Assembly: GCA_050298595.1 (NCBI GenBank)
Contig: JBNKUM010000008.1
Coordinates: forward strand, 139,017-203,016
Source: Gammaproteobacteria bacterium
Lineage (GTDB): Bacteria; Pseudomonadota; Gammaproteobacteria; GCA-001735895
Reading direction: 5' to 3'
Length of the DNA: 64,000 nucleotides
In this document: piece after piece, positions 3,691-37,731 of the stretch
Layout: each line of letters begins with the position of its first letter
Position numbering within the stretch: position 1 is the stretch's first letter
Translations under genes and position numbers: made by a program
Notes under the pieces: model-generated
Told to the model about the DNA's origin: nothing
What the model saw: the letters and a program-made list of their open reading frames with translations, nothing else
Databases searched by the model: none

Positions 3691-5628
3691 TTAATGCAAA
3701 CTTGCTGGATCAGATAAATCCGCTTTTTTCTTATCCTTTGATTCAGCCTTGGTAGCACCCGCACCACCACTATCGGAAGGATCATCCGAGCCATTGCTGG
3801 TCCAGTCCTCTGGAGGACCTGGCACATGGCCTTGCATAATGGCATCGATCTGACTGACATCAATAGTTTCATACTTCATCAAAGCATCCGCCATCAAATG
3901 AAGCTTATCTTCATTTTCTGTCAGGATTTTCAATGAACGCTCGTAGTTTCGATCAATAATGCCGCGAATCTCAGAATCTATCGCCTGAGCAGTTTCATCC
4001 GAAACCATTTTATTTTTGGTGACAGACTTACCCAGAAAGACCTCTCCCTCTTCCTCAATATAGGTCAATGGACCCATACGATCTGAAAGCCCCCATTTGG
4101 TCACCATATTCCGCGCCAGGCTGGTAGCACGTTCAATATCATTGGAAGCACCTGTGGTGACAGCATCTGCACCAAAGATTATTTGCTCGGCAATACGCCC
4201 ACCGAACAGACTGGAAATATTACTTTCCAGATGTTGTCGACTAGCACTATAACGGTCATCCTCTGGCAGGAACATAGTCACACCCAGAGCACGTCCACGC
4301 GGAATGATTGACACCTTGTATACAGGATCGTGATCCGGCACCAGACGTCCGACAATAGCATGCCCAGCTTCATGATAAGCGGTCAGCTTTTTCTCATCTT
4401 CTTTCATGATCATAGACTTGCGCTCAGCACCCATCATGATCTTATCCTTAGCACGTTCAAATTCGGCCATGCTAACAAGTTTTTTATTGCCACGTGCAGC
4501 AAACAGTGCGGCTTCATTCACCAGATTGGCTAGATCAGCACCAGAAAATCCAGGGGTACCACGCGCAATCACCATCGCATCAACATTGTCTGCAGCAGGA
4601 ACTTTACGCATATGAACCTTCAGGATATGAGCACGACCACGAACATCCGGTAATGGCACCACGACCTGACGATCAAATCGACCTGGACGAAGTAGCGCAG
4701 GATCTAGCACATCAGGACGGTTAGTTGCGGCAATTACAATAACACCTTCGTTGCCTTCAAAACCATCCATCTCAACCAGTAACTGGTTCAGGGTTTGCTC
4801 GCGCTCATCGTGACCACCACCCAGGCCAGCGCCACGATGACGACCAACCGCATCAATTTCATCGATGAAGATAATGCAGGGACTATGCTTCTTGGCCTGT
4901 TCAAACATATCACGAACACGTGATGCACCGACACCAACAAACATTTCCACAAAATCGGAACCGGAGATAGTAAAGAAAGGTACCTTGGCCTCACCTGCAA
5001 TCGCTTTTGCTAACAGAGTTTTACCAGTACCGGGTGAGCCCACCATTAATACGCCGCGAGGAATCTTGCCACCCAGCTTCTGGAATTTGGCTGGGTCGCT
5101 TAGGAATTCAACCAGTTCAGCCACATCTTCTTTGGCTTCATCAACACCGGCCACATCATTAAAGGTTACATTAACCTGATCTTCACCCAATAAACGGGCT
5201 TTGGATTTGCCAAAAGACATAGCACCACGACCGCCACCACCGCCCTGCATCTGGCGCATGAAGAAAATCCATAAACCGATCAGAATAATAAATGGGAACC
5301 AGCTAATAAACATATGAGCCAGCAAGGAAGGCTGTTCGGGTGGCTTGGACATAATCTGTACGCCAGCCTTCTCAAGATCACCTATGAGTGGAGAGTTATT
5401 AGTTTCTGGACTATAGGTCGAAAAAGTAGCCCCACTGATCAATTTTCCGTTGATCTGCTGCCCTTCGATCAACACCTCACTAATCTGCCCGGCACGAACC
5501 TGAGACAGAAATTCGGAATAGATCATATTTCTACCGGATGTACTGCGGTCACCAAAATTCTGAAACACTGATAACAGAACTACCGCGATCACAACCCATA
5601 GGATTAAATTCTTTGCTACGTCATTCAC
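3691..5628 (-). CDS. ftsH: ATP-dependent zinc metalloprotease FtsH
   Basis: 645-aa ORF with two N-terminal TM segments, Walker A GPPGTGKT, an SRH region and the HEAGH zinc site. Confidence 0.95.
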
Positions 5629-12108: not shown

Positions 12109-13659
12109 CTATCCGGCTTTTTTAGTCAAAGCCTTTTTGCATCTTCTGACTGCCTGCAACATCTGGTTTGCATCGGCATAGCGTTGATAAGGCTTTTTGG
12201 ATAATGCTTTTTGCAGTATTTGCTTGATGGAATCAGGCACGGTAAGAATACTGAGATCTACCTTCTGGGTGAGTACATTTTTTTTCATCTCAGACAACTT
12301 TTCACCATAAAAGGGTTGATTGCCGGTTAATAGGTGATAAATAGTTACCGCCAGCGAAAAAAGATCTGACCGACCATCAATTCTTAATCCATTCAACTGC
12401 TCGGGGGACATATAGGCGGGGGTTCCTATGATCTTTCTCTCTTCATCTTTATGTCGAAAATCGCTATAAGCAGCACCAAAATCAGTAAGTATGTAATGTT
12501 TGAGTTTATTGTCATACATGATATTGGCTGGTTTTATATCACCATGCACAATGTTTTTTTCATGCGCTGCAGTGAGCGCATCGAGCACTGATTCCATTAT
12601 GCGCAAACTCTCCCCCGAGGTAATAAATTTTTTACGCCGCAACCTTTCCGACATGGGATAACCTTCGACATAGTCCATTGCAATAAAAGCTCGGTCATCG
12701 ATGATATCGGCATCGTGAATCTTGACTATATTCGGATGATCAAGTTGAGACGCAGTCAGCGCCTCATGCAAAAAAGTCATCACATCACGCGCACCAGTAT
12801 CATCATTTAACTTATCGTTAAGAATTTTGAGTGCTATTCGTTTATGGGTATGTAAATCGTGAGCGTCATACACAGTTGCGGTCGCTCCTCGAGCCTTTTT
12901 ACCCAGTAATTGATACTGGCCGAACTGTTTCGTTTTGGTTGTATCGGAGCTGTCAGTCTGGCTTACACTTTTCTCCTGTTCCATTGAATCAATTCTTTCT
13001 ACAAAGTCCTGCATCCCCGGATCAAACTTGACCAGCCAGGCATAGAGACTGCGCGCTGTCACCCAGTCCTGCTGCTCCTCTAGCTGCATACCCAGATCGT
13101 AAGCCAGCTCGAACATTTCATCTGAAAACGGGCAGTTTTTTAAGATTAACAACGCCGTCTTGAAATCCTTTTGCTGTATATACTGATTAATCACTTTCAC
13201 CTGACATACCTGTTCGGGTAATACGAAATTTTTAATCTGTGGAAAACGAACCCACACAAAAAGCACCACCACGGTCAAGCTGAACATGATTACCGACCAA
13301 ACCATAGGCAACCAGATCTGCTGTAACACCGCCAGCAATACTTCGAGCATCAACATAGCAGAAATGATCGGAATTACAAAGATCAGGGTCAGATGTTTAC
13401 AACTGCGCAGCAACAAGCACAGGAATACTGCGCCGAACATGAGGCATATCACTAGCCGCTGTAAAAACCAGGGATACCCCTGCTCAGTGACTGACACTTC
13501 CAGATTGAACCTGGGTGTTAAATCTATTAACTGTTGATAAAAAGCGCTTTCCAGACCGATAATAGCAGCATGAAAACTCAGTAAAATACTGAGTAACAAC
13601 ATACATCCTGTATAAATGAGCATCCATTTGCGTGTTTGAACATCAATCCACATGCCCAT
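12109..13659 (-). CDS. membrane-anchored Hanks-type Ser/Thr protein kinase: N-terminal TM region of about 4-5 helices, a helical linker and a C-terminal kinase domain
   Basis: Gly-rich loop LGKKARGATATVY, beta3 lysine in IALKIL, catalytic loop HGDIKPAN (non-RD), DFG in TDFGAA and SPEQ for APE. The first 150 aa or so are strongly hydrophobic. Confidence 0.75.
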   Translation of the reverse strand: MGMWIDVQTRKWMLIYTGCMLLLSILLSFHAAIIGLESAFYQQLIDLTPRFNLEVSVTEQGYPWFLQRLVICLMFGAVFLCLLLRSCKHLTLIFVIPIISAMLMLEVLLAVLQQIWLPMVWSVIMFSLTVVVLFVWVRFPQIKNFVLPEQVCQVKVINQYIQQKDFKTALLILKNCPFSDEMFELAYDLGMQLEEQQDWVTARSLYAWLVKFDPGMQDFVERIDSMEQEKSVSQTDSSDTTKTKQFGQYQLLGKKARGATATVYDAHDLHTHKRIALKILNDKLNDDTGARDVMTFLHEALTASQLDHPNIVKIHDADIIDDRAFIAMDYVEGYPMSERLRRKKFITSGESLRIMESVLDALTAAHEKNIVHGDIKPANIMYDNKLKHYILTDFGAAYSDFRHKDEERKIIGTPAYMSPEQLNGLRIDGRSDLFSLAVTIYHLLTGNQPFYGEKLSEMKKNVLTQKVDLSILTVPDSIKQILQKALSKKPYQRYADANQMLQAVRRCKKALTKKAG

Positions 13660-18079: not shown

Positions 18080-18517
18080 TTAACCGTGGCTTCGTTGATA
18101 CTGCCCCATCATCCAGCCAAGAAACGCTGTCAGGGTTTGCTTCTGCTTACGGTCACAGTCTTTTTGCATCGCTTCAAGCCGGCTTCGGGTTTCCATTAAT
18201 AAGCTTTCGTATTCACGAACCTTTTGCTGAGACTCCTGTAATTTCATCTGAAGTCTATTCACCTGATCGGCCATCACTCTTTCAGAAGGAATAGAATCAG
18301 CCTGAATCTTGAAAATAGCATTGTGCTGAATGCGCTCTACACGATCCAGTTCCTTTTCATTTTCAAGCCTGACCTGTGGATAGAACTTGAGCAGTGAATT
18401 TACACTCACATCACCTTCAAAAACTTCAAGATTACCCGCTTTGATTTCCTGCTGGATCTGCCTTCTGCTGATGCCGGCCATTTTGGCTGCGGTCGAAATG
18501 TTTAAATGGTGTTGCAT
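18080..18517 (-). CDS. hypothetical protein: N-terminal MerR/excisionase-like HTH followed by a long coiled coil
   Basis: 145-aa ORF. The N-terminal motif AAKMAGISRRQIQQEIKAGNL resembles an HTH_17/MerR helix-turn-helix. The remainder is heptad-rich and charged. Confidence 0.5.
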   Translation of the reverse strand: MQHHLNISTAAKMAGISRRQIQQEIKAGNLEVFEGDVSVNSLLKFYPQVRLENEKELDRVERIQHNAIFKIQADSIPSERVMADQVNRLQMKLQESQQKVREYESLLMETRSRLEAMQKDCDRKQKQTLTAFLGWMMGQYQRSHG

Positions 18518-18603
18518 GATGTCCTCTTGGTTGTTTACAAGAAAACTTATACCTAATTCGGACAGGCATTACAATAGAAATATATCACTAATGGGATATA
18601 CGG

Positions 18604-19008
18604 TTAGACCGATGAGCCAGAGGTATGCCAGGCAAAAGAGCAATCTAGTTGTGAACGTACCTGTATAAGTCCGGCCAGCCCCTTATTGATCATGACACTG
18701 ATAGGAGGTTCGTTATTGAATCTTTTATGCGGCTGCTTCATCCATCTTGCACACATTTCTACATTGCGAGGATAAGAGGTTCTCAGGGCATCAGCTATAC
18801 CCAGAAGATGTTCCAGGTGTTGATTAATCAGCTCGGTATCCGGTAAAGGCTCATCCTGACGATAGCGTTCCAGCTTGCGGGTACGCATGTCTTCGGGCAA
18901 ACCAAGCAGGATGATTTTCTGCTCACCATTGGTACCCCAGCTATCGAGCAGCTGCATGATGTGATTGCTTAATAAGACACGCTGATCTTTGCTGCCGGTT
19001 AATCTCAT
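18604..19008 (-). CDS. DUF2384-like protein (ParS/MbcA/Xre-type antitoxin toxin-binding domain), apparently orphan
   Basis: 134-aa ORF. The C-terminal half (HLLGIADALRTSYPRNVEMCARWMKQP...PPISVMINKGLAGLIQVRSQLD) follows the DUF2384 pattern, A-x-x-W-L/M-x-x-P ... P-hydrophobic ... G ... V ... L. This is a by-eye match only. Confidence 0.4.
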   Translation of the reverse strand: MRLTGSKDQRVLLSNHIMQLLDSWGTNGEQKIILLGLPEDMRTRKLERYRQDEPLPDTELINQHLEHLLGIADALRTSYPRNVEMCARWMKQPHKRFNNEPPISVMINKGLAGLIQVRSQLDCSFAWHTSGSSV

Positions 19009-19085
19009 GCCACCCCCGGGGAAGTAATAATTGATGGCTTAGTATAGATTCAGCTTAGCTGCGAATACCCAGCTTAAAGATAAGG

Positions 19086-19412
19086 TTAATCATCTTCCAG
19101 ATTAAAATATCCGCGTTGTAATGCGTGTTTGAGCTGATCGAAGCCTTCGATTGCCTCCAGATAGGCATTGCGCCATTTTTTTGCTTCTTCGCAGAGTTGA
19201 ATATCAAGATTCGATTCATCAGCATGCGCCATCTGCAGCACATACTTCAGATATCTTGCACGTAAAACAGCTATGGATTGCGCCAAATGCAGAAAATCTG
19301 ACTTCTTGATGTTACCAGCAATTTTAGTAATTGTACTTGAATTCATTAACGAGATTTGATGCTCAAATTGTTGCATCAAACGACGTATCTCTGTTTCATT
19401 TTCGCCAGCCAT
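19086..19412 (-). CDS. hypothetical all-helical protein
   Basis: 108-aa ORF with no family recognised. Its start context and codon usage look gene-like. Confidence 0.4.
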   Translation of the reverse strand: MAGENETEIRRLMQQFEHQISLMNSSTITKIAGNIKKSDFLHLAQSIAVLRARYLKYVLQMAHADESNLDIQLCEEAKKWRNAYLEAIEGFDQLKHALQRGYFNLEDD

Positions 19413-25787: not shown

Positions 25788-25866
25788 AACGTATTCCATA
25801 TTACTGTTAGTATCTTATTGATCGAATTTTATTTTTGTTCCTATCGAAGTATGAGCCTTCAGTAAA

Positions 25867-26420
25867 ATACTATGTAAAGCTTAACCCAAGAGTATCAAAA
25901 ATGAGGTTCCTATTATCCACAGACTTATCGAATCTGTGAAGGTATTCAAGAATAAAGGTGAAATACTTACCGCCAAAAAATTTAATGCCAACACCATTTG
26001 AAAACCCGCTCCCAGATTGATCATTGGTGACTTCATCATACAAATACAATCCGCCAAATCCCAGAAGAGTATAGGGATTGTATTTATCTAAATCTTTACC
26101 AGCTTTTAATTAACCACCATAAGTAACTACTCCGTGGTCTGACTTGATTCTAGATATCAAACCAAGTTGTCCTTCAATCGAAACAATTTCATTTAAGACT
26201 ATCCCATACTTCCCCTTAGCATATATCCCCAACCATGGGACTCATCATTGCCAGCATCGACTTTTAGATCATATATACTGCTTGAAAATTGGCATCCGTA
26301 AAACTCACCAGATAGATTCATCTCCGCAAAAACCAGGTTCTGGAAAGTAATACCAAAAATAAAAATCAATTTCACCGGGAATTGATTTAAAAGAATTTTA
26401 TTGATGCTTTTCATGAGCGT
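25867..26420 (-). pseudogene. pseudogenised paralog of the outer-membrane beta-barrel protein at 27811-28416 (one frameshift plus one internal stop)
   Basis: Three-frame reading of the minus strand gives a signal peptide, then EMNLSGEFYGCQFSSSIYDLKVDAGNDESHGWGYMLRGSMG*. A frameshift follows into IVLNEIVSIEGQLGLISRIKSDHGVVTYGG*LKAGKDLDKYNPYTLLGFGGLYLYDE... This is collinear with the intact 208-aa paralog. Confidence 0.65.
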
Positions 26421-27116
26421 CCTATGCAACTTCAAGTTTATCGAGATTGATTCCAATCTGTGCCTAATATTACAAATACACATTATCAGGATAAACAAAT
26501 GTGACAAAAAATTTTCCAAAACTCATTTCCCAAAAACGTCCACCACATGACAACTATTAACCACACCTGGAAAAGAAAGTATCTTGTCAAAAAAACATAT
26601 CAGGCCTTTGAAGTGAATTGAAAATTGAACGTAAAACTAAGCTCGGATATCCATGTATTTATCAAATAAACCACCCCATCAAGACGGTTTCGATATCAAA
26701 ACATCCTACGAAGCAATATTAACTGATTTAATATAAATAATAGTCAGCATTCTTACAATAAGTAAAATAGCGTAGGCAAGAAAACCATATAAGCTGTTTA
26801 GCGTACGACTCCATAAGCTCTTAATGTGCTACACATAGTCATCTCTACCATATCCCAAAGAAAACCATAGCTATTCATTTTTTAATCTATATTACAATAA
26901 TACGGTAATGTCGTAATGGACTACAAAATGGACCATCTATTAAGGATACATAATTGTTGGCGATCACAGTCTTATCAAAACAGAAAAAAGTTAGATTTAC
27001 AAAACCTGAATAAAAAAATCAAAATTTGACTTTTGAGAAGCGCCGACATAGGTAGGTGTTCCATCCGCAGCAAGGGTTGATCCAACCATTCCCTTTACCA
27101 CTCCGCAACAAAATGT

Positions 27117-27248
27117 TTAAAAGTCGGAGTGAGCAGAACTTATATCACGTATTTTTGCATCAAGGTTTATAATTGCTACACTAACAGTGGATGCAGCTAC
27201 CAGCGATAAAGCGCATGTAAGAGTAGCCAATTTGGATTTCAGTTTCAT
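27117..27248 (-). CDS. candidate small secreted peptide (43 aa)
   Basis: MKLKSKLATLTCALSLVAASTVSVAIINLDAKIRDISSAHSDF has a clear signal-peptide-like N-terminus. A strong GAGGTG Shine-Dalgarno lies 7 nt upstream of the internal ATG. It sits in an otherwise ORF-free AT-rich spacer. Confidence 0.25.
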   Translation of the reverse strand: MKLKSKLATLTCALSLVAASTVSVAIINLDAKIRDISSAHSDF

Positions 27249-27810
27249 TTTTTTCACCTCGTGAAATCGAAAAGGTGAATATAACAACGCATCAATCAAT
27301 CCATTTTTTAATGAACTTTATTAATACAATGACTTAATAAGTTATCAGCAATAAATACGTCATAAACCGTAAAAAAGGCTGGCATCATGAGTCTTTTGAG
27401 TGTGAAAACTTTATACACAATTTTTCACAATTGTGAGCTGCTAGCTCTATCCTTTATGAAAAATATAAGTAACGACTCAGCGTAAAAACAAATGATAGCG
27501 GATAGCTCAATGAATAAACGCAGACAACTCACCTTCAAAAACAAACTTAAAAGTTGCGAAGCATTTCTCTTTTTCTTGCGGCAGATAGAAACATAACCAT
27601 GAACCCGGCAGAATATTTTAGCGTCCTATTCACTACGAAAACAGCCAGATATTTTCTGCTGCACTTTGGTCATACACCAAGCTTTTGTTAATTACGATCA
27701 TTGACCAGAAAAATTTTCAAAAAGAAGTTGCTTTTCTCGTAATTATGTAACAAAGAGGAAAGAGCTTTATCACAAACTTTATTTCTATTTTTCAGAAGAT
27801 CGTTTACAAC

Positions 27811-37170: not shown

Positions 37171-37731
37171 ATGGCCGTTCAACAAGACCTTCTCAACCTT
37201 AGTGACCTCTTTAACTTCTCAGATATCAGTTCATTGACTCAAAACATCCCCATCAAGTGGGTTGAGTCTGCGCTGCGCTTGAGCGCCAGTACAACGATTA
37301 GGAGGCGTCGGTTGCCATCGGAACAAGTACTTTGGCTTATGTTGGGGATGGCGATGTTTCGAAATGAGCCGGTACATGAAGTTGCCAGGCGTTTAAATAT
37401 ATGCGCGCAAGACCTGGCCTCAGACAGTCTTTTAGCTCAAAGCGGTGTCACTAATGCTCGTAAACGACTCGGCTCAGACCCCGTAGAAGGGTTATTTCGA
37501 CAAACAGGTACGCACTGGGGGAACGAACGTTATCCTGAAGATGAATGGAACGGGTTGAAAGTGATGGCCGCTTCTAACCCGATATCTGGAATGGGTCGAC
37601 GACTGTCGGAGCTGAGGTCTGGTATTGGAAGTTTGTTTTTGGAAAGACGTCCGAGGCCAGCAAAGCCTCGGACGGTAAAGATATCAAAGACCCGATATCC
37701 GGTGGATCGTTATGCTGCTCCGCTTAAGTGA
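37171..37731 (+). CDS. IS4-family transposase remnant: N-terminal DNA-binding region fused in frame to the C-terminal tail, with the DDE catalytic core missing
   Basis: RRRRLPSEQVLWLMLGMAMFRNEPVHEVARRLNI and ARKRLGSDPVEGLFRQTGTHWGN match the IS4 (E. coli) transposase N-terminus. The tail ERRPRPAKPRTVKISKTRYPVDRYAAPLK matches the IS4 C-terminus (TRRERAFPRVVKERPWKYPTAPKK). IS4 is about 440 aa; this ORF is 186 aa. Confidence 0.7.
   Translation: MAVQQDLLNLSDLFNFSDISSLTQNIPIKWVESALRLSASTTIRRRRLPSEQVLWLMLGMAMFRNEPVHEVARRLNICAQDLASDSLLAQSGVTNARKRLGSDPVEGLFRQTGTHWGNERYPEDEWNGLKVMAASNPISGMGRRLSELRSGIGSLFLERRPRPAKPRTVKISKTRYPVDRYAAPLK

Follow-up and report, generated by a model that had tools for sequence, protein, structure and literature searches.

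Antitoxins of the RES-Xre family have, to our knowledge, been described solely in partnership with toxins that degrade NAD or transfer ADP-ribose. MbcA-MbcT of Mycobacterium tuberculosis, Xre-RES of Pseudomonas putida, VPA0769-VPA0770 of Vibrio parahaemolyticus and ParS-ParT of Sphingobium are two-gene modules with a RES or ADP-ribosyltransferase (ART) toxin. In the NatR-NatT pair of Pseudomonas aeruginosa, basic residues on helices a1, a4 and a7 of the antitoxin NatR (PA1029; PDB 8qnl) grip the acidic flap of the toxin NatT, and the C-terminal helix a7 of NatR enters the NatT active site and plugs it (PMC11535050). Here we analysed a stretch of 64,000 nucleotides from a Gammaproteobacteria bacterium (assembly GCA_050298595.1, contig JBNKUM010000008.1, positions 139,017 to 203,016 of the forward strand; hereafter the window), in which a member of this family is encoded with no toxin beside it. 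This gene, g134 (134 aa; 19008-18604, minus strand), encodes an N-terminal helix-turn-helix (HTH)-like module and a C-terminal antitoxin domain. It lies between two other small genes of the same strand, g108 (108 aa; 19412-19086) upstream and g145 (145 aa; 18517-18080) downstream. We consider it highly probable that g134 is a toxin-less, vertically inherited member of the NatR/MbcA/Xre family which is not paired with its neighbours. The three genes are not a toxin-antitoxin operon; they are neighbours by synteny in a stretch of core genes, flanked by motY on one side and by the genes for a PduO-type cobalamin adenosyltransferase and MetH on the other.

Homology of g134 to true antitoxins is secure across its full length. 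The DUF2384 domain that the first-pass annotation had read in the middle gene was recovered with Pfam PF09722 (Xre_MbcA_ParS_C, the C-terminal toxin-binding domain of Xre, MbcA and ParS, formerly DUF2384), whose gathering score of 24.5 is exceeded by the match to residues 84-122 (27.4 bits, E 3.5e-6). The NCBIfam model NF049845, for a type II RES/Xre antitoxin subfamily, gave 18.4 bits, short of its cut-off of 90. The full-length homology follows from three further results. First, the AlphaFold model of g134 (built on a 19-sequence family alignment; predicted local distance difference test score 87.9, predicted template-modelling score 0.81) has seven helices and shows the whole NatR/MbcA/Xre antitoxin fold, an HTH-like N-terminal module followed by a C-terminal helical bundle. 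Second, the ten best PDB matches of this model in Foldseek are all antitoxins of RES toxins. Third, by tblastn g134 matches an annotated MbcA/ParS/Xre antitoxin on plasmid pTK9001 (33% identity, 87% coverage, E 6e-13), whose stop codon overlaps a 'RES family NAD+ phosphorylase' gene. This pair of Thioalkalivibrio sp. K90mix (antitoxin WP_013006565, RES toxin WP_013006566) is the closest toxin-linked relative of g134 that was found, and its host is a sulfur-oxidising gammaproteobacterium too. Unlike g134, the pTK9001 antitoxin is plasmid-borne, overlaps a RES gene and ends in ...VRAYLDRARGH. NatR itself is only about 15% identical to g134, which has no natT-like RES gene downstream. Among g134 family sequences down to 45% identity, 24 columns are invariant.

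In the canonical modules, a RES (PF08808) or ParT-type gene lies directly downstream of the antitoxin gene, and the two overlap by 1 nt or stand 5 nt apart. At g134, no such gene follows, and the gaps are 77 bp (g108-g134) and 86 bp (g134-g145). Both gaps carry conserved promoter-like elements, in keeping with the loose coupling that the first-pass annotation had suggested for these three ORFs (open reading frames), whose coordinates were also confirmed as exact. The toxin search covered the 64 kb of this genome and 5 kb on either side of the relatives' loci. A RES hidden Markov model (HMM), built from the two RES toxins adjoining the nearest toxin-linked relatives, was scanned against all six-frame stop-to-stop ORFs of at least 40 aa in the window and in 98 fetched loci (numbered L where one has to be named), and the sole scorers were three positive controls. 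Pfam annotation of 46 of the 50 crude gene calls in the window gave no RES domain; the other four, long calls are what we take to be FtsH, CarB and AceE, from their sequences, and MetH, from its domains. Neither g108 nor g145 has a RES match at E<=1 in Pfam, and comparison of their family profiles with the two RES toxins gave probabilities of at most 0.1%. A RES domain hidden in a neighbour, which the first-pass annotation had not seen either, is thus ruled out by Pfam, NCBIfam, profile-profile comparison and the structural model of g145. PADLOC gave no match passing a useful threshold at the locus, so that membership in a defence system is unsupported. The neighbourhood comparison across relatives that the first-pass annotation had proposed was carried out as well, and in about 95 related loci no RES gene stands beside the g134-type gene.

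These relatives form a branch of their own. A profile search against 1.84 billion cluster representatives gave 936 matches with E<=1e-3, 340 of which have E<=1e-10; the best 150 were aligned, and in a neighbour-joining tree they fall into three contiguous blocks. In one class, which we call R, the C-terminus reads ...VRxYLDxxRG[RH]. In the RES-less class O, to which g134 belongs, subgroup O_W ends in ...L[DN]G..W and subgroup O_DC, which includes g134, in ...LDC[TSA][FYW]xW, often followed by D-x-[TS]-G-S; the g134-type end can be written LDC-x-[FY]-x-W. All three class-R members with readable context have RES directly downstream: the genes overlap on pTK9001 and, by 1 nt and with IS66 adjoining, in L090, and a 5-nt gap precedes a RES fragment (E 6e-21) in L100. 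Class O comprises at least 83 clusters at 50% identity and occurs in 252 species-level genomes (GTDB), all Gammaproteobacteria. By record title, its hosts are Acidiferrobacterales, Sulfuricaulis, Sulfurifustaceae, Thiohalomonadales, Thioalkalispiraceae, Ectothiorhodospiraceae, Chromatiales, Thiotrichales and 'Ca. Porisulfidus'. A single contig binned as 'uncultured Mycobacterium sp.' (L062) has the gene order of a Thiotrichales bin (L060) at near-identical coordinates, and it is probably mis-binned. Class O is an old toxin-less branch, sister to the toxin-keeping class R, and is inherited vertically. In full-text literature searches for DUF2384 and for orphan antitoxins, no description of a conserved toxin-less branch of this family was found.

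The surface that meets the toxin in NatR-NatT differs between the two classes. In alignment, the net charges of a1/a4/a7 are +1.1/+1.2/+0.8 in class R and -1.3/-0.8/-0.6 in O_DC, whereas the HTH segment is positive in every class (+1.6 to +2.6). A His-Lys pair in a4 is conserved in class R and is replaced by Ala/Asp-Glu/Asp in O_DC. In NatR, a1, a4 and a7 are basic and a7 carries a basic, toxin-plugging tip; in g134, the three helices are acidic and a7 ends in LDCSFAWHTSGSSV, so that the basic surface and basic C-terminal tip of RES-Xre antitoxins are missing, as far as residues can be equated by alignment. Within O_DC, D122 and C123 are invariant (54/54) and W127 is nearly so (51/54). Because the charge of a1, a4 and a7 is reversed while the HTH segment has stayed positive, toxin binding has probably been lost or changed in O_DC and the DNA-binding module kept. 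Since g134 lacks the adjacent toxin, the tight coupling and the basic contact surface, it does not qualify as a toxin-antitoxin system, and in practice this means no more than that the locus should not be counted as one. The ends of the proteins offer an annotation rule, C-terminal LDC-x-[FY]-x-W for toxin-less members versus YLDxxRG[RH] for true antitoxins; current annotation lumps both as 'DUF2384 / MbcA/ParS/Xre antitoxin family protein'.

Inheritance and selection were followed in the same loci. Homologues number 358 (close) for g134, 98 for g145 and 77 for g108. One g134 locus per genome was found in the 80 species kept, and three of these loci are on complete chromosomes, of 1.57, 1.59 and 2.67 Mb. 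Members of the close clade (65-100% identity) share the gene order hydrolase-motY-g108-g134-g145, single losses in L010, L014 and L015 apart, and the percentage identity of g134 runs parallel to those of MotY and MetH. The ratio of non-synonymous to synonymous substitution rates (dN/dS; Nei-Gojobori) is 0.06-0.08 for g134, 0.04-0.06 for g145, 0.07 for MotY and 0.08-0.36 for g108, with synonymous sites saturated past the nearest relatives. By their homologues and this purifying selection, g108, g134 and g145 are real genes, and they look like core genes in behaviour. Carriage of class O or g145 by phages or plasmids found no support and was rejected: there was no phage match, plasmids gave only distant class-R antitoxins for class O (33% identity at best), and for g145 they gave nothing. 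In L015, a deletion (5360-5520) fuses the g134 orthologue at about codon 127 with the last third of g145; g145 may have been lost naturally, or the junction may be an artefact of assembly.

Orthologues at 43-53% identity have different neighbours from those of the close clade. In the commonest distant order, genes for HspQ/YccV and TerB lie upstream of a 94-aa unknown protein, the g134 orthologue, a 138-aa CxxCxxCC protein (PF03692), a HAD protein and CysQ. Other distant orthologues are accompanied by pta or by genes for an RluA-type pseudouridine synthase, Redoxin, TudS, a methyltransferase or a thiamine pyrophosphate (TPP) enzyme, and some are solitary between opposite-strand genes. Most g134 orthologues are without both g108 and g145, and no neighbour gene is common to all g134 clades. 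The distant neighbours (the 94-aa protein, the 138-aa CxxCxxCC protein and a 154-aa Cys-rich protein) were considered as diverged forms of g108 or g145 and rejected, with hhalign probabilities below 1%. Lineage by lineage, the neighbours of class O are often iron-sulfur (Fe-S) or thiol proteins, namely CxxCxxCC PF03692, ferredoxin-FNR, Rieske, Redoxin, and TudS with DUF1722 (L018, L028, L029, L030, and CxxCxxCC loci such as L019 and L075).

Genome surveys (PMC7192599, PMC10790755) use the term 'orphan' or solo antitoxin. Genes so named there resemble g134, as antitoxin-family genes without a toxin. Surveyed orphan antitoxins are mostly strain-variable leftovers. Unlike them, g134 belongs to a deep, conserved clade with its own sequence signature. 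The first-pass annotation had proposed an orphan antitoxin, perhaps retained to cross-regulate, and 'orphan' is right in that no toxin adjoins; however, g134 is not recently stranded but a member of a deep, vertically inherited toxin-less clade.

We favour, with moderate confidence, the reading that g134 is an antitoxin homologue which has been domesticated without its toxin and now serves as a small DNA-binding regulator, its C-terminal domain turned to a new use. In this scheme, g134 would work like NatR, MbcA and Xre, whose whole seven-helix fold it keeps, both the HTH-like module and the former toxin-binding domain. Class O is passed on vertically as a single-copy chromosomal gene of sulfur-oxidiser-type Gammaproteobacteria. 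The basic HTH segment would make the protein a small DNA-binding regulator, and the former toxin-binding domain, with its new invariant LDC-x-[FY]-x-W-x-x-[ST]-G-S end and acidic a1, a4 and a7, would sense or bind a target other than a RES toxin encoded next to it. That g134 is a regulator of transcription in particular is a tentative assignment, held with slightly more doubt than trust. Class O is a clean candidate for the domestication of a component of a selfish module to a host function, a branch in which the toxin would have been lost and the contact surface changed, and which is under strong selection as a core gene in several orders, including symbionts with 1.6-Mb genomes.

Several points weigh against this scheme. 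DNA binding by g134 is something that we infer, and the N-terminal module stays below the threshold of Pfam PF20432. Palindromes upstream of g134 orthologues are not enriched relative to control upstream regions (Mann-Whitney p 0.93), and a shared autoregulatory palindrome was rejected for this lack of enrichment. Conservation in the g134 family is highest in the C-terminal half, the former toxin-binding part, which keeps most of the residues common to RES-linked relatives; this would fit a protein partner, and none was found. A g145-like gene is near g134 in two divergent clades, and some functional tie between both is therefore possible. The tree that separates class O from class R is midpoint-rooted and carries no support values, and the class-O members come nearly all from metagenome bins. 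Moreover, an unlinked RES or ART toxin outside the 64 kb, or more than 5 kb from the relatives' loci, would lie beyond the scope of the search.

The last point leads to the alternative that g134 is a working antitoxin or regulator for an unlinked RES or ParT-type toxin, a split pair acting in trans. The intact fold speaks for it, as does the strong conservation of the former toxin-binding domain, in which residues H67, I71, L75, R76, P80, N82, W89, P102, G113, R118, L121 and D122 are shared with RES-linked relatives. However, all type II pairs of this family that we encountered consist of adjacent or overlapping genes, the a7 tip and the charge of a1, a4 and a7 are changed, the gene persists in genomes of 1.6 Mb, and no RES gene is present within 64 kb here. 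We regard a split pair as unlikely.

A more specific proposal is that class O is a domesticated antitoxin turned housekeeping sensor-regulator of sulfur-oxidising Gammaproteobacteria, in which the remodelled former toxin-binding domain, with its invariant Asp-Cys and Trp, would sense a thiol, persulfide or redox signal or dock onto an Fe-S or flavin protein. It would fit the g145 and ferredoxin-FNR genes adjoining g134 in two divergent clades and the CxxCxxCC, Rieske, Redoxin and TudS genes elsewhere. By a rough estimate, the frequency of such Fe-S or thiol neighbours, the pattern behind this proposal, is not clearly above chance. We hold the proposal to be distinctly unlikely as it stands.

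g145 bears on the question of whether g134 has found a new partner. Its homologues are nearly all exactly 145 aa (n=98). The downstream gene had been described as an HTH plus coiled-coil protein, and the AlphaFold model agrees: residues 4-45 form a small beta-alpha-alpha-beta-beta-alpha winged HTH, which is followed by long helices at 54-73, 79-118 and 123-144, so that g145 would be a MerR/Xis-type winged HTH with a coiled-coil hairpin. Foldseek gave weak matches (E 0.03-0.2) to mycobacteriophage Xis, MerR-family proteins including the sensor-less HiNmlR, RacA, BldC and CbpM, and the score against Pfam HTH_17 is 12.6 bits where the cut-off is 27. Sequence searches of the PDB with g108 and g145 gave coiled-coil noise only. 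A MerR C-terminal effector-binding domain is lacking, as only the helical hairpin follows the HTH. Like the sensor-less members of the MerR superfamily (HiNmlR, 5d90; Xis, 4j2n; RacA; BldC), to which its matches are weak, g145 has a small winged HTH and then a long helix; it differs from them in its helical hairpin tail and in its link by fusion to a ferredoxin-FNR reductase. In L012, L013, L016 and L017, a gene for a 332-aa protein of 2Fe-2S ferredoxin and FNR-type reductase directly follows g145. In L028, L037 and L038, a g145-like module is fused to Fer2 and FAD/NAD-binding domains (about 493 aa), and the fusion gene is found on the opposite strand within 1.5 kb of the g134 orthologue, two genes upstream of it. 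This fusion explains the label 'CDP-4-dehydro-6-deoxyglucose reductase' on some g145 homologues. g145 is not a toxin but appears to be a free-standing version of the N-terminal module of an HTH-ferredoxin-FNR reductase, and gene order and gene fusion place it functionally with that reductase, whose gene is absent from this window. When the DNA of the neighbourhood is compared with that of three relatives in 150-nt windows, conservation is highest over g145 (identity 0.93-0.97, 0.89-0.94 and 0.78-0.81; 0.65-0.90 in the flanks), and the synonymous divergence to L008 is 0.30 for g145, 1.9 for g134 and 1.05 for motY. This conservation could be due to nucleotide-level constraint or to a recombination tract.

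The upstream gene, g108, has no match in Pfam, NCBIfam, PADLOC or the PDB, and appears from its sequence to be a small protein unrelated to g134 and of no recognisable family. The first-pass annotation had read it as helical; its sequence contains no proline. Homologues are restricted to the close clade and a few relatives at about 42% identity, one of which (L087) stands alone among metabolic genes. In 'Ca. Thiodiazotropha lotti' (L089, 5001-6752), a 71% homologue lies upstream of a Fic-domain gene without g134 or g145; the Fic-inhibitor motif [ST]xxxE[GN] was not seen in g108 when the sequence was read by eye.

The first-pass annotation had also considered that the DUF2384 domain is partnered with a new effector, so that g134 would form a toxin-antitoxin-like or effector system with g145 or g108. 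In favour of this, synteny of the trio is strict in the close clade, the divergent clade of L028, L037 and L038 has a g145-like module no more than 1.5 kb from g134, and canonical pairs carry the toxin as the downstream gene. However, the downstream gene here, g145, is predicted to be DNA-binding, has a promoter-like element of its own, exceeds g134 in conservation and in other lineages is part of a reductase fusion. g108 occurs without g134 (L087, L089), g134 and g145 occur without g108 (L010), L015 has lost most of g145, and most g134 orthologues are without either gene; in other lineages the genes that adjoin the g134 orthologue are all different or all on the opposite strand. No PADLOC match of useful strength was obtained for such a system. 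A new pair therefore did not hold up, and we consider it quite improbable.

It is still less probable, and to us very doubtful, that g134 is an orphan immunity factor against incoming RES toxins of plasmids, phages or secreted polymorphic toxins. Its nearest toxin-linked relatives are indeed on plasmids of the sulfur oxidisers Thioalkalivibrio and Acidithiobacillus, and RES domains are found in polymorphic toxins as well (PMC3482391). However, orphan immunity genes are usually variable and island-borne, whereas g134 is single-copy, syntenic and strongly conserved across orders, with its toxin-contact helices changed. The missing toxin alone might suggest that g134 is what decay has left of a broken toxin-antitoxin module, but this can be dismissed, since the selection data refute it and the frame is intact in more than 250 species with its invariant columns preserved.

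To return to g134 as a solo regulator, the two gaps would allow separate transcription of g134 and g145. A purine-rich Shine-Dalgarno sequence precedes each ATG of the trio, including that of g108. The conserved elements in the gaps were found by aligning relatives; a consensus promoter and terminator scan found none on the coding strand. Upstream of g134, a promoter-like block, TTAACCTTA...CTATT...TATACT (19090-19041, minus strand), has invariant columns in seven relatives, with the -10-like hexamer TATACT at 19046-19041, 32 nt before the ATG, and it is kept in L010 despite the loss of g108. Right after the g134 stop and upstream of the -35-like box of g145 lies a palindrome, TATATC-N8-GATATA (18581-18600, minus strand). 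Most relatives examined have a palindrome of other sequence at the same site, such as ACTATTAC-N4-GTAATAGT in L011, and its arms change in a compensatory manner; it may be either an operator or a hairpin. The promoter-like element of g145 (18546-18574, minus strand) consists of TTGTAA (18574-18569), a 17-nt spacer and TATAAG (18551-18546). TTG and TATAA are invariant in seven relatives and the layout is found in 11 of 11 close-clade loci; the consensus scan missed this element because the last base of its -10 box is not T. These patterns of conservation suggest that both elements act as promoters.

The leader of g145 contains a putative hairpin (18522-18543, minus strand), in which TTCTTG (18543-18538) pairs with CAAGAG (18529-18524) and which overlaps the Shine-Dalgarno sequence AAGAGGA (18528-18522). 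The CTCT...AGAG pairing occurs in 8 of 11 relatives, with compensatory changes (CTCTTG/CAAGAG versus CTCTGT/ACAGAG). This anti-Shine-Dalgarno hairpin may control the translation of g145. No known RNA family was found in either gap. In many distant g134 orthologues, an extended -10 (TGCTAGAAT) lies 50-60 nt upstream. A perfect inverted repeat of 21 bp was seen upstream of the g134 orthologue in L083 (at about 60-110), and an 11-bp palindrome, CAATTATTGTA-CAA-TACAATAATTG, lies over a -10-like TACAAT in L028, L037 and L038; both are candidates for lineage-specific operators.

The surroundings of the trio are ordinary. Its upstream flank holds motY and genes for an alpha/beta hydrolase and a DUF748 protein (Pfam/NCBIfam), its downstream flank holds those for the PduO-type cobalamin adenosyltransferase and MetH, and its GC content (0.42-0.45) is the same as that of the surroundings. 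The remaining window consists of genes of core metabolism and pili, including secG, tpiA, glmM, folP, greA, carA, lpd, aceF, pyrC, rnt, sodB, argD/F/A, dksA, sucCD and pilSR/pilB. The length of 134 aa as a clue to relatedness was rejected, as the two other 134-aa ORFs of the window are SecG and a pilin.

A few minor observations concern other parts of the window. Directly downstream of metH, a eukaryotic-type Ser/Thr kinase with a long hydrophobic N-terminal half is encoded at 12109-13659. Between the genes for a 685-aa secreted Ig-like protein and an outer-membrane beta-barrel protein, about 2 kb (25800-27810; GC 34%) are nearly free of ORFs. An N-terminal fragment of an IS4-family transposase (186 aa; 37171-37731) lies between a response-regulator gene and grxD, in core surroundings. 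After the pilin gene comes a GC-poor block (32-38%; 53305-61838) with two pairs of paralogues, one of the Sulfatase family (53305-55317 and 57001-59127) and one of Wzy_C O-antigen-ligase-like proteins (55357-56778 and 59802-61217), followed by an IS200-type transposase fragment (61494-61838). This block looks like an acquired and duplicated pilin-modification island.

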